A DNA stretch of 64,000 nucleotides from Bacteroidetes bacterium OLB10 (lineage in GTDB: Bacteria; Bacteroidota; Bacteroidia; AKYH767-A; OLB10). Below are positions 8,631 to 63,560 of this stretch, piece after piece. The translations under genes were made by a program, and so were the position numbers. Positions within the stretch are counted from its first letter, which is position 1, and the number at the start of each line of letters is the position of its first letter. The notes under the pieces were generated by a model. It was not told where the DNA came from, searched no databases, and worked only from the letters and a program-made list of their open reading frames with translations. Where the stretch lies: positions 129,769 through 193,768 of the forward strand of contig LNBX01000046.1 in the NCBI GenBank assembly GCA_001567275.1. The letters run 5' to 3'.

Positions 8631-10145
<1,515 letters not shown>

Positions 10146-10264
10146 TTACTTTTTTATTTAGCTTAAACCTTATTTTTCAAGGCGCGAAATTAGTAAAAAT
10201 CAGCTACTAAATTTCAAAGCAACAAGAATGTTGTCAACAATTTGTAAATTAGTCGTTTAACATT

Positions 10265-10298
10265 AAAAAAGGCGCTATGAAAGTGAGTCATAGCGCCT
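10265..10298 (-). terminator. Intrinsic terminator after the sigma factor gene
   Basis: 10-bp perfect stem GGCGCTATGA/TCATAGCGCC followed by T6 on the minus strand. Confidence 0.8.
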
Positions 10299-10327
10299 CA
10301 GGGGCTTATTACCGATTAGTTTGGCTT

Positions 10328-11200
10328 TCAGGTCAGCACAAATGTGTTTTCAATTTGCTCAAGGTGTTTACTTTCTTTAGTTTTTTTAATAGCCTTGTCT
10401 TTCATCTGACGGACACGCTCGCGTGATATTTCCAGGTGATCGGCAATTTGCTCTACAGAATAATCGCTTTCGTGTTCAATGCCATAATACATCTTTACTA
10501 CCTGACGCTCGCGAGGTCGCAGAACGGTTAAGGTTTGTTGTATATCGTGTTTTACAGATTCACGCTCCAGGCTATTGTCGGCAGGGAGTGCCGTGTAATC
10601 CGGTATAAACTCATAAAGCGATGATGCGTCATCTTCAGAGCCAACAGGCATATCAAATGAGATTGGTGATACATTCAGGCGGATGGCTTCTTTAATAGCC
10701 TGCTCTGAAAGTTGAGTAGCCTCAGTAAGTTCTTTGTCATTCATTTCACGGCCATACTTTTGTTCAAATGCCGATTGCATTCTTTTGATTTTTGAATACT
10801 GGGTAACCTGATTAAAAGGTACGCGAATGAGTCTCACTTTTTCAATTAATGCAAGCATAATAGACTGGCGAATCCACCAAACGGCATACGAGATAAATTT
10901 AAATCCTTTGGTGGCATCAAATTTTTGTGCTGCCTTAATCAGACCGATGTTTCCTTCATTAATCAAATCAGATAAGTTCATTCCCTGATTCTGATATTGC
11001 TTGGCCACACTTACAACAAAGCGCAGGTTGGCTTTTACAAGTCTTTCCATGGCTGCTTTGTCGCCTTTCTTAATTCGTGATGCCAATTGCTCTTCTTCTG
11101 CAGGAGTGAGCAATTGTTCCGAGGCAATTTCATTGAGATAACGTTTCAGGCATTCGCTTTCACGCAGTGTGATGGAGTTGGTAATTCTCAGCTGTCTCAT
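10328..11200 (-). CDS. RpoD/SigA-family sigma-70 factor (short Bacteroidota type), probably a diverged second copy
   Basis: MRQLRITNSITLRES, ANLRFVVSVAKQYQNQG, DLINEGNIGLIKAA, GFKFISYAVWWIRQSI, SRERVRQ. Removing one base from the T7 run at 10381-10387 gives the family-like end AIKKLKKVNTLSKLKTHLC* (stop at 10333). Confidence 0.9.
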   Translation of the reverse strand: MRQLRITNSITLRESECLKRYLNEIASEQLLTPAEEEQLASRIKKGDKAAMERLVKANLRFVVSVAKQYQNQGMNLSDLINEGNIGLIKAAQKFDATKGFKFISYAVWWIRQSIMLALIEKVRLIRVPFNQVTQYSKIKRMQSAFEQKYGREMNDKELTEATQLSEQAIKEAIRLNVSPISFDMPVGSEDDASSLYEFIPDYTALPADNSLERESVKHDIQQTLTVLRPRERQVVKMYYGIEHESDYSVEQIADHLEISRERVRQMKDKAIKKTKESKHLEQIENTFVLT

Positions 11201-11254
11201 AGCTGTAAGATTTTTAGAAAATGTGTTATACTTTTTTGATGTCTTGAGATATTT

Positions 11255-11270
11255 TGCAACAATCTTGCCA
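11255..11270 (-). promoter_or_regulatory. Sigma-54 (RpoN) -24/-12 promoter upstream of the sigma-70 gene
   Basis: Minus strand reads TTTT-TGGCAAGATTGTTGCA, i.e. TGGC..TTGCA with exact GG-N10-GC spacing, 55 nt upstream of the ATG and in sense orientation. Confidence 0.7.
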
Positions 11271-11539
11271 AAAAATTCATCGTAAACACATTTGACGCGT
11301 TATGAACGCTTTGTAAGGTTTTTACAAAAACAGATTGAAAAGCATAGATTCATCTTTGATTGTTGTTGGGCGATGACTTTATAATTTTTCATTTATATTA
11401 ACGGAATCGTTTATCAGCAATATAATTTAGGGTTGAACATTTATTCGTTTCACCCAATTTTTATGAGATCATCAGCACATCTGTAACAGGTTTTACGTTA
11501 TATTTTCTTTGTAATTTTACCCTCATCAGAAAATTGTAT

Positions 11540-11977
11540 ATGATTAAAAAAAATTTTGTGGTTGCCTGTTGTAGCAGTTTGCATGTCGGGTTGCGTTTCA
11601 CTCAAAATGCCTGAAGTAACAGGCGTGAGTAATTTGCGCCTTACCGATCTTTCAAAAGATATGAGCATTCAGTTTGACCTTGGATTGAAAAATCCAAATT
11701 CTTTTGGCGTAACTTTAAAGTCAATGAAAACTGAAATTTTGCTTGCCGATAGTGTAGTAGCTTCAGTCGGACTCAGACATAAACAGCGACTTGCAGCAGG
11801 GCAAAAACACAACTCCCTTTTACGGTGAAACCTGATGTATTGTCCATGCCCAAACTTGGATGGCTTGGAATAACACAATTATTTAAGAAAGACGATAAGA
11901 AGTTTGCCGTTAAAGGGGAGATCAAAGTCAGGAAGTTTATTTTTTCCAAGAAATATAAATTCTCCTATCCTAAATAA
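11540..11977 (+). CDS. LEA type 2 (WHy-domain) lipoprotein; two homopolymer frameshifts
   Basis: Correcting A8 (11546-11553) gives MIKKILWLPVVAVCMSG-C with a lipobox, followed by LGLKNPNSFGVTL (NPN motif). Correcting A5 (about 11803-11807) continues TQLPFTVKPD...VKGEIKVRKFIFSKKYKFSYPK*. Confidence 0.7.
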
Positions 11978-11988
11978 AAGTTCATATT

Positions 11989-13030
11989 GTGGCTGTCACT
12001 GTTACTGTTGAAAGTGTAATTCCTCACATACTACAAAATGATGCTGTATTTCTTGATACACGCAGCCCTGCAGAGTATGAACATGCACATATACCGGGAG
12101 CACTTTCATTTCCGCTGATGAGTAATGAAGAGCGTGCAATTATCGGAACTATTTATAAGCAGCAGGGCAGACAAGCTGCCGTTACTGAAGGGTTCAGGCT
12201 GATAGGTCCGCGTTTTGCTGAATTTGTTGAAAAGGCTCATCAGATTACAGAGGGAAAAAAAGTGTTTTTGTATTGTTGGAGAGGAGGTATGCGCAGTGGT
12301 ATCATGGCATGGATTCTCAGTATGGGAGGTGTGCCTGTTACAGTAATTAAAGGAGGTTACAAAGCATACAGACATTGGGCGCTCAGTACTTTTTCGGTGC
12401 AAAAATCAATTGCCATTATCGGAGGTAAAACCGGCAGCAGAAAAACTGAACTGTTGCATGAATTGAAAAATAACAACCAATATATAATAGATCTTGAAGA
12501 GTTGGCGCACCACAAAGGCTCTGCTTTCGGAGCGTTGGGAATGCTACCACAACCTTCAACAGAACAATTTGAAAACAGTCTTGCATTGCTATGGCATCGC
12601 GCACCTGATGATGCTCCTGTTTGGCTTGAAAATGAAAGCAACAAGATAGGAAGATGTGCCATACCCATGTCCTTGTTTGAGCAAATGCGCGAAGCTGTGT
12701 GTTATGAGTTAGATGTGCCTTATGAGGAGCGTAAGCAACATATACTTAAAAGCTATGGTTGCTTCGACAGGGAAAGTCTTGCAGCATGTAACTGAAAAAA
12801 AAAAAAAACGTTTGGGAGGGCTTCGGCTAAAAAATGCACTTGAAGCACTTGAAGAAAACCGCCTTTCCGACTGGTGTGATATTGTGATGGAGTATTATGA
12901 TAAAACCTATGCACACAGCAATATGCAGCGTGATGCAAATAAGATTATTCGTATAGCGGCTCAAAAAGATGTTGCTCAGCATCTGATAGCCAAATCAAAA
13001 GAAATTATAACCAATGGATACAGCAATTAA
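11989..13030 (+). CDS. mnmH: tRNA 2-selenouridine(34) synthase; 1-nt frameshift at about 12790
   Basis: Rhodanese domain DTRSPAEYEHAHIPGA and YCWRGGMRS, IDLEELAHHKGSAFG; C-terminal KRLGG...YYDKTY in ORF 12713..13030; adjacent to selD. Confidence 0.92.
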
Positions 13031-14051
13031 ATTAACTGAATACAGCAAGCATGGAGGTTGTGGTTGCAAAATTGCACCTGATGTACTTACTCAGATTCTG
13101 AGTGGAAACAGCTGCAGTTTCAATTCTGCTCAGCTTCTTGTAGGAAATGATAGTAATGACGATGCTGCAGTATTCGATTTGCAGAATGGTACGGCTATCA
13201 TCAGCACAGCCGATTTTTTTACTCCTATTGTTGACAATCCATATCATTTCGGACGAATAGCAGCTGCCAATGCTCTCAGTGATGTGTATGCAATGGGTGG
13301 AAAACCATTAATGGCAATAGCTATATTGGGATTTCCGGTGAGTCGTATTCCGGTATCTGTTGCAGCTGAAATTAAAAAGGGAGCAGAGGAAATTTGTGCC
13401 GGGGCAGGAATTCCTTTAGCAGGAGGCCACAGTATTGACAGTGCTGAACCTTTTTTTGGTCTTTCAGTTACCGGTATGTCAGCTTGCGAAAACATCAAAC
13501 GTAATAACACCGCACAACCGGGTGATGTGTTATTTCTGACAAAACCACTTGGCACCGGCATAATCACATCAGCCCTGCGCAAACAAAAAGTTCAGCCTGA
13601 CGATCTCGAAGCAGCAATTCAAAGTATGACAACATTAAATGATATGGGTGCTGCAATTAGTCATTTACCGGGAGTTCATGCCATGACTGATATTACAGGT
13701 TTTGGTTTTCTTGGTCATCTGATGGAAGTGTGCAAAGGAAGTAACGTGTCGGCACATATTCAGTTTAATGAATTGCCTGTGTTGCCCGGTTGCAAAAAAT
13801 ATATTTCAGAGTTTTTATATCCTGATATGACCACAAAAATTTTTGCAAATATTTCTAATGATGTAAATGAACTTACATCGGATCAGCTGTTCATTGCCTG
13901 CGACCCACAAACCAGTGGAGGACTGCTTATTGCAGTGGGTCATGACAGTGTGCAGAAATTTAAGGATATATGTGCAGAGAGAGGATTTAATCCCGGAAAC
14001 CCGGTAGGTGTAGCGGTGGAAAAAGAAGAAAAATATATTTCTGTTTTTTGA
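13014..14051 (+). CDS. selD: Selenide, water dikinase (selenophosphate synthetase), Cys form
   Basis: LTEYSKHGGCGCKI, DDAAV, DFFTPIVD, AANALSDVYAMGG, GGHS, TDITGFG, DPQTSGGLL. Confidence 0.96.
   Translation: MDTAIKLTEYSKHGGCGCKIAPDVLTQILSGNSCSFNSAQLLVGNDSNDDAAVFDLQNGTAIISTADFFTPIVDNPYHFGRIAAANALSDVYAMGGKPLMAIAILGFPVSRIPVSVAAEIKKGAEEICAGAGIPLAGGHSIDSAEPFFGLSVTGMSACENIKRNNTAQPGDVLFLTKPLGTGIITSALRKQKVQPDDLEAAIQSMTTLNDMGAAISHLPGVHAMTDITGFGFLGHLMEVCKGSNVSAHIQFNELPVLPGCKKYISEFLYPDMTTKIFANISNDVNELTSDQLFIACDPQTSGGLLIAVGHDSVQKFKDICAERGFNPGNPVGVAVEKEEKYISVF

Positions 14052-61565: not shown

Positions 61566-63560
<1,995 letters not shown>

Follow-up and report, generated by a model that had tools for sequence, protein, structure and literature searches.

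A candidate sigma-54 promoter before a divergent SigA-like sigma factor gene of Bacteroidetes bacterium OLB10

The stretch of DNA studied here (the window) comprises 64,000 nucleotides of Bacteroidetes bacterium OLB10 (assembly GCA_001567275.1, contig LNBX01000046.1, forward-strand positions 129,769–193,768), and on its minus strand it carries a gene for a divergent SigA-like factor of the sigma-70 family, hereafter the window sigma. We consider it probable, from sequence comparisons, that this gene encodes an alternative, primary-like sigma factor that would be read from a sigma-54 promoter of the form TTGGCA-N6-TTGC, and not from a Bacteroidota sigma-A promoter. What makes sigma-54 control likely is that the motif is conserved upstream of the orthologues of the gene, that it matches sites preceding proteostasis genes and the SM4 promoters mapped in Flavobacterium psychrophilum, and that it recurs in particular clades of SigA paralogues. 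The sigma factors usually attributed to Bacteroidota are a single primary sigma of unusual type, one sigma-54 and many extracytoplasmic function (ECF) sigma factors, as in the account given by Guerin et al. (2021, ISME Commun, PMC9723704). The organisation of the general stress response in this phylum is poorly known. To our knowledge, its members have neither RpoH nor RpoS. If the proposal is true, a family of abundant wastewater and freshwater Bacteroidota would possess a two-tier sigma cascade coupled to a chaperone regulon, and this would be a concrete circuit of four parts, namely the promoter, rpoN, four candidate activators and the target sigma.

The motif, TGGCAAGATTGTTGCA, is found at 11270–11255 on the minus strand, preceded by TGAATTTTT, with an exact GG-N10-GC spacing and 54 nt before the ATG. 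The initial annotation had described this candidate RpoN -24/-12 element and its spacing correctly, with the distance to the gene overstated by one nucleotide (55 nt). Its remark that no TAnnTTTG box precedes the gene holds over the full 355 nt upstream (11201–11555), where neither TAnnTTTG nor nAnnTTTG occurs; the whole window contains 61 copies of TAnnTTTG, both strands considered. A single site of this kind is not significant, because a 64-kb window is expected to hold about 1.6 sites, both strands counted, that depart from TGGCAC-N5-TTGCW by no more than one mismatch. Genome-wide there are 74 such sites compared with approximately 33 in mononucleotide shuffles, and only eight of the 74 lie outside long open reading frames (ORFs), most of them being inside genes. 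The window motif by itself is within chance expectation, and its significance comes from its conservation and its context.

Orthologues of the window sigma were found in six of the 83 genomes of the family, belonging to two of its 23 genera, with protein identities of 62–95%, and two more distant ones (58 and 56%) were retrieved from metagenome contigs, so that the eight orthologues span four lineages and identities of 56–95%. A genome of the same genus (G004, 92% complete) has no orthologue of this clade, the 146 genomes of the order contributed a single extra match, of canonical type (L210, one of seven genomes matching at E ≤ 1e-90), nothing closer than 58% was found in 401 genomes of the class searched with L130, one of the orthologues, and a further search of contigs returned only matches of about 50% identity. 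The eight upstream regions cannot be aligned with one another except for three islands, which are an ATG triplet, the 14-mer TGAATTTTTTGGCA followed by a tail of the form (A/C)(G/A)(A/G)T(T/A)(G/T)TT(G/T)(C/G), and a leader element, CAA(A/G)T...TAAC, that stands at a variable distance from the promoter. Conservation of the motif upstream of orthologues, which had been suggested as a check, was borne out in large part. The -24 half, TTGGCA, is invariant in all eight, TGGCA-N6-TTG is retained in six and the full GG-N10-GC in five. Between the block and the start codon the eight sequences have no -10 or -7 element in common. Together with the lack of a TAnnTTTG box, this is what a sigma-54 promoter would lead one to expect, in contrast to a promoter of the sigma-70 family.

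The second line of evidence comes from genome-wide mapping of transcription start sites (TSSs) in F. psychrophilum, in which a motif named SM4 was assigned to sigma-54 and one SM4 promoter was mutagenised (Guerin et al., 2021, PMC9723704). As presented in that paper, SM4 precedes groES-EL, lon, dnaK, grpE-dnaJ, htpG, clpB and skp, and ten of its sites follow the pattern (T/A)(T/C)GG(C/T/A)(A/C)N-N5-(T/C)TG(A/T/C), the stretch ahead of TTGG being often rich in T (for example TTGGCACAAAACTTGAC before dnaK and TTGGCAGCAATTTTGCA before grpE). GG and TG are invariant in these ten sites, and TG is followed by A six times, by T three times and by C once (PMC9723704). The strict GG-N10-GC rule, on which the initial annotation had built its test, is therefore wrong for Bacteroidota, since only one of the ten SM4 sites has the C at -12. 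For annotation in general, this means that sigma-54 promoters of this phylum, with (T/C)TG and then A, T or C at -12, will be missed too often if the classical rule is applied. The window site, TTGGCAAGATTGTTGCA, fits the phylum-specific SM4-type motif.

Once the C of the -12 GC is no longer required, the intergenic matches to TGGCA-N6-TTG in the genome include sites ahead of the proteostasis genes dnaK, lon and grpE, and a related site precedes groES-EL, all of them 8–55 nt before the start codons (Table 1; dnaK, lon and groES-EL were identified via Pfam and grpE by a search with PF01025). Before clpB there is only a weak site, GGTTTTATTTTTG, about 100 nt upstream, which we have not counted, and a search of the genome, which is 96% complete, revealed no gene for HSP90. 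The strict consensus was of little use as a regulon finder, as it gave eight intergenic sites with no obvious regulon among them, and beside the four activator genes described below it gave no convincing site except one before groES. The window site resembles SM4 in its form, TTGGCA(Y)-N5-TTG(N), in the T-rich DNA upstream, in its position some tens of nucleotides before a start codon, in the company of dnaK, lon, groES-EL and grpE, and in the phylum to which it belongs. It differs in that F. psychrophilum has a single sigma-A and no sigma gene among the SM4 targets named above, whereas here the target is a SigA paralogue, and in that the base following TGGCA is A in the window site and is A in none of the ten SM4 sites (PMC9723704). 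A survey of predicted sigma-54 promoters made with position-specific scoring matrices (PMC12316311) likewise reports chaperone genes as enriched for such promoters in Bacteroidota. It also associates sigma-70/sigma-32-type genes in general with predicted sigma-54 promoters, including COG0568 and COG1191 sigma genes in bacteria at large. In both respects the survey is in line with our case, with the difference that the passages concerned make no mention of SigA paralogues of Bacteroidota nor of the taxa in which COG0568 is enriched. The promoter class shared with these genes suggests that the window sigma may belong to a sigma-54 regulon for proteostasis and envelope stress.

The third line of evidence concerns the other SigA-type genes. 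The genome (2.96 Mb in 51 contigs) has four SigA-like genes, and the three outside the window, which are 48–49% identical to the window sigma, carry the canonical strings QSILQA..RIVRLPLN and LTRERVRQI. None of the three has a sigma-54-type motif upstream, and one is preceded by a perfect TAACTTTG box. The window sigma and its orthologues form a clade of eight with full support (100/100) and a branch length of 1.36 changes per site in an IQ-TREE phylogeny of 45 sequences, and it is evident that we are dealing with an alternative SigA paralogue next to canonical copies, as the initial annotation had supposed. The two protein strings that it quoted, QSIMLALIEKVRLIRVPFN and YSVEQIADHLEISRERVRQM, are both present in the window sigma. 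The accompanying claim that the protein departs from housekeeping SigA where promoter DNA is read stands for regions 2.4–3.0, where AEQ(A/S)R is changed to (I/V)(E/D)KVR specifically in this clade, and falls for region 4.2, in which the recognition residues RERVRQ are unchanged.

As a control, the 150 nt upstream of the 184 SigA-type loci with enough upstream sequence were examined for the motif, either strict (TGGCA-N6-TTG) or relaxed (GG[CAT]A-N6-[TC]TG), and the loci were placed on a FastTree phylogeny. Apart from the window clade, the motif is concentrated in a single clade of 23 paralogues (loci L020–L033, L055, L073, L147, L210 and L213–L215), which come from other genera of the family and some metagenome contigs and include the best match of each family genome to the window protein. 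In 20 of these 23 loci the motif, TGGCA(Y)-N5-TTG(N), is located 43–82 nt before the start codon. The 23-member clade has no T-tract and no TGAA, and its likeness to the window clade upstream of the gene is thus limited to the -24/-12 core. In the tree of 45 rows a branch with 87/73 support has both motif-bearing clades on the same side. Match scores in the family suggest that a genome with a member of one clade may have none of the other. The counts (Table 1) are descriptive and carry no statistical test, as the genomes are related and hence not independent, and likeness to the query decided which loci were taken; one orthologue, L019, whose N-terminus is broken by the assembly, was left out of them and has the motif all the same.

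With regard to the gene itself, the window sigma has all four Pfam regions of sigma-70 above their cut-offs (1.2, PF00140; 2, PF04542; 3, PF04539; 4, PF04545). Its best NCBIfam matches are to RpoD/SigA, RpoS and SigB models, all well under the curated cut-offs. For RpoD the scores are 247 against a cut-off of 384.5 (TIGR02997) and 235 against 354 (TIGR02393), a shortfall that may hold phylum-wide, as canonical Bacteroidota SigA was not scored against these two models. For RpoS they are 235 bits against 378.7 (TIGR02394) and 222 against 394 (NF004207), and the idea of an RpoS-like master switch of stationary phase, put forward in the initial annotation, finds no support here. The stretch was found in many sequencing runs from activated sludge, wastewater and bioreactors, among them six metatranscriptomes, and contigs of four RNA libraries from four different studies cover the sigma gene. 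In all four of these libraries one A of the A7 run at 10380–10386 (at 10381) is missing. With one A fewer the protein has 288 residues and its C-terminus becomes identical to that of the closest, 95%-identical orthologue, and both RNA contigs and orthologues indicate that 288 residues is its true length.

The same libraries give some information on the transcript. The sigma gene is spanned by a single contig in X15 (10301–11226, joined to an Illumina adapter at 11226) and in X18 (10301–11234), and is covered by shorter pieces in X16 and X20. At the downstream side the contigs of X15, X16 and X18 stop at 10301, adjoining the hairpin of the terminator, whose 12-pair stem and T-run agree with the strong terminator of its own that had been attributed to the gene. 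At the upstream side the ends of X15 and X18 lie 9–18 nt downstream of the predicted start and 21–29 nt downstream of the motif, and such contigs cannot fix a 5' end. No contig covers 11235–11546 in any of the four libraries, which is not evidence of absence. These ends agree with the block being a promoter and do not separate a start at 11243–11245 from one at about 11235.

The remaining components of a sigma-54 circuit, rpoN and genes for bacterial enhancer-binding proteins, were also looked for, as the initial annotation had advised, and found. The rpoN gene, split in the assembly as described below, is located at G000:C40:62318-63812 (306 bits, above the cut-off), and rpoN exceeds the cut-off in 38 of 41 relatives as well. 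Four strong PF00158 proteins are encoded (E-values of about 1e-67 to 1e-71), with the loops GAFTGA, GSFTGA, GAFTSA and GAFTDA. The GAFTGA protein has a receiver-AAA+-HTH_8 architecture; the GSFTGA protein (L010) is AAA+-HTH_8 without a receiver domain and is encoded 2.5 kb upstream of groES; and the GAFTSA and GAFTDA proteins (L007 and L008, at G000:C24:69303-70466 and C48:17985-19154) are receiver-AAA+ proteins with no HTH_8 or other DNA-binding domain. We envisage, from motifs and domain content, that RpoN-RNA polymerase would bind the promoter as a closed complex and that one of the four AAA+ proteins would open it, with no enhancer needed if this were one of the two that lack a DNA-binding domain. 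Transcription would begin near 11243–11245 and end at the hairpin 10299–10269. The new sigma could then redirect part of the polymerase pool to promoters of its own, adding a second tier to a sigma-54 stress regulon that in Bacteroidota would already include dnaK, lon, groES-EL and grpE. Our inferences here are sigma-54 dependence, the start site, the acting activator, the signal that sets off induction and the regulon under the new sigma.

A number of observations weigh against this proposal, and several of them feed the strongest alternative, which we regard as unlikely, that the conserved block is a promoter for a sigma-70-family factor or an operator for some other factor and resembles a sigma-54 promoter by coincidence. 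Candidates for this factor are the window sigma under autoregulation, a further SigA paralogue or an ECF sigma, with TTGGCA or TGAAT as a -35-like element, or else a repressor or activator binding TGAATTTTTTGGCA. The strongest conservation, in TGAATTTTT and the ATG triplet, lies upstream of the -24 element and beyond the region classically contacted by sigma-54, the invariant TGAATTTTTTGGCA extending 8 nt beyond the -24 GG on its upstream side, and conservation falls off toward -12. In one of the four lineages, represented by the orthologues L130 and L131, the sequence is TTGGCACAATATTTTC with no TG at -12, its TTTC not fitting the SM4-type motif at this position, and a third orthologue, L018, has TTGG there and fits it loosely. 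TTGGCA matches TTGACA at five of six positions, and a 17-nt spacer after it as a -35 element would give a start at about 11235, to which the contig ends at 11234, 11229 and 11226 are nearer than to 11244. No enhancer is conserved across the upstream regions of the orthologues, and in L018 a divergently transcribed gene lies only about 50 nt from the motif, which leaves hardly any room for one. The inverted repeat GGGTGAA...TTCAACCC at about 11430–11455, proposed initially as a weak enhancer candidate, does exist in an imperfect form and is not conserved, being lost even in the 95%-identical orthologue. A lack of conserved enhancers would be explained by the two activators without a DNA-binding domain. 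Genome-wide, TGGCA-N6-TTG shows no excess, with 19 intergenic matches compared with 13–26 at other spacings, a score over six positions gives 25 at the sigma-54 spacing and 18–26 elsewhere, and spacing controls with TGGCA-Nx followed by TTTG, TTGC, TTG or TTGA show no clear peak at the sigma-54 spacing. For tests of this kind the motif offers too few positions and the regulon too few genes; the missing spacing signal nonetheless counts in favour of the alternative. The assignment of SM4 to sigma-54 appears itself to have been made, in the published account, from motif likeness and promoter mutagenesis and not with an rpoN mutant (PMC9723704). Finally, rpoN is split in the assembly by a +1 frameshift near position 62550 of G000:C40, with T6 where the congeners G001 and G006 have T5. 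This is probably a homopolymer error of the assembly, since the RNA contigs reveal two other such errors within 3.5 kb (at 10381 and 11802).

Several findings set a limit to a sigma-70-type promoter or an operator. The eight orthologues share no -10 or -7 hexamer placed at a constant distance, and inspection of the block by eye for a Bacteroidota -33/-7 promoter, for ECF-type and sigma-32-type promoters and for a CRP-like palindrome gave no element common to all of them (TTGTG-N10-CACAA is palindromic only in L130 and L131). The sister clade of paralogues keeps TGGCA-N6-TTG in the absence of T-tract and TGAA. The same motif stands before dnaK, lon, groES and grpE and matches SM4 sites mapped by their TSSs, which are likewise T-rich upstream of TTGG (PMC9723704). 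The extended block, searched with up to four mismatches in 20 nt, has no second copy in the genome; nothing thus points to an autoregulated regulon with this block in common, and as a repeated regulon motif it can be dismissed.

For these reasons we favour the sigma-54 promoter, and two further alternatives fare far worse. The first is a motif that arose by chance, with transcription from a weak sigma-A promoter that escaped recognition at some other place in the 355 nt. What speaks for it are the 1.6 sites expected per window and a scan of 10100–11700 that gave five sigma-70-type sites, all on the plus strand and no more than in shuffled sequence (mean 4.5). It is nonetheless very improbable: the block is invariant in eight orthologues amid unalignable DNA, the motif is present in 25 of the 30 loci of the two paralogue clades against two of 154 elsewhere, no TAnnTTTG box lies upstream, and the RNA contigs stop shortly downstream of the motif. 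That the window gene is a divergent housekeeping sigma, as its length and the four-region architecture of a short Bacteroidota SigA might suggest, is scarcely credible given three canonical SigA-like genes in the genome, orthologues in only six of 83 family genomes and none in the same-genus G004, and so long a branch.

A sigma-54 promoter directly before an alternative sigma-70-family gene is also a feature of the Rrp2-RpoN-RpoS cascade of Borrelia burgdorferi, and rpoH of Escherichia coli has a predicted sigma-54 promoter. Cascades from sigma-54 to another sigma are already known, from RpoN to RpoS in Borrelia and, by prediction, to sigma-32 in enterobacteria. Our case would share with Borrelia the two tiers and the placement of the (here predicted) sigma-54 promoter; in contrast, the target is not RpoS but a primary-like paralogue without region 1.1, and both phylum and signal differ. 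Primary-like paralogues beside a housekeeping sigma also bring to mind the group 2 sigma factors of cyanobacteria and actinobacteria, of which there are several per genome, with regions 1.2–4.2, non-essential and lineage-restricted. These cannot be under sigma-54 control because both phyla are without sigma-54 according to Francke et al. (2011, PMC3162934), where the Borrelia RpoN-RpoS cascade is named as well. Our literature searches turned up no account of Bacteroidota with group 2 sigma factors or with a SigA paralogue dependent on sigma-54; the supplement of the promoter survey (PMC12316311) may list such cases.

Taking both motif-bearing clades together, a bolder scenario is possible, which we offer as a tentative one that may well prove wrong. 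An old SigA-like lineage of the order, comprising the window clade and the 23-locus clade, might have been wired wholly behind sigma-54 promoters and might act as the missing stress sigma of RpoH/RpoS type in the phylum, with sigma-54 and an enhancer-free receiver-AAA+ activator serving the chaperones directly and a wider stress regulon via the second sigma. The window clade would then be a fast-evolving offshoot with altered -10/-7 recognition in regions 2.4–3.0.

Table 1. Positions of the features discussed and motif counts by clade (window positions unless prefixed G000, the genome carrying the window)
Feature	Position	Strand	Detail
Divergent SigA-like sigma-70-family gene	10328..11200	minus	ORF as assembled, 290 aa
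Predicted sigma-54-type promoter TTGGCAAGATTGTTGCA	11255..11271	minus	-24 TTGGCA (11271-11266), -12 TTGC (11259-11256)
Invariant block TGAATTTTTTGGCA	11266..11279	minus	-24 element with upstream T-tract and TGAA; 8/8 orthologues
Predicted transcription start	11243..11245	minus	Inferred from SM4 spacing, 12-13 nt past the -12 position
Leader element CAA(A/G)T...TAAC	11225..11238	minus	TAAC in 8/8 orthologues; inside X18 RNA contig
Intrinsic terminator	10263..10299	minus	12-pair hairpin 10299-10269 with 6 G-C pairs, then T-run TTTTAATGTT
dnaK motif TGGCACAACCATTGAC	G000:C24:88428-88443
lon motif TGGCACGACCATTGAC	G000:C10:7584-7599	minus
groES-groEL motif TGGCACACTTGCTGCA	G000:C26:359371-359386		Related site
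grpE motif TGGCAGTGTTTTTGAA	G000:C13:22878-22893
23-member paralogue clade			FastTree support 91; motif in 20/23 loci
Window clade			FastTree support 100; motif in 5/7 loci
All other SigA loci			Motif in 2/154, relaxed form only

Some observations were also made on the genes neighbouring the window sigma. Three RNA runs add an A behind 11802, in an A5 run, and the assembled sequence truncates there a LEA_2-like ORF (11556–11828). A rhodanese-domain ORF of 268 residues and an overlapping ORF of 105 residues look like one gene split by a frameshift, and they adjoin an AIR-synthase-type gene with a GGCGCK motif (11989–13030 and 13014–14051, both on the plus strand); the pair possibly corresponds to a selenouridine synthase and a selenophosphate synthetase. 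On the other side, the RNA contigs of atpD stop at 10168 (minus strand) in two runs, joined to an adapter in X15. From this end it is 35 nt to the atpD ATG; a near-consensus TAATTTCG box at 10192–10185 would place the start about 10 nt further upstream.

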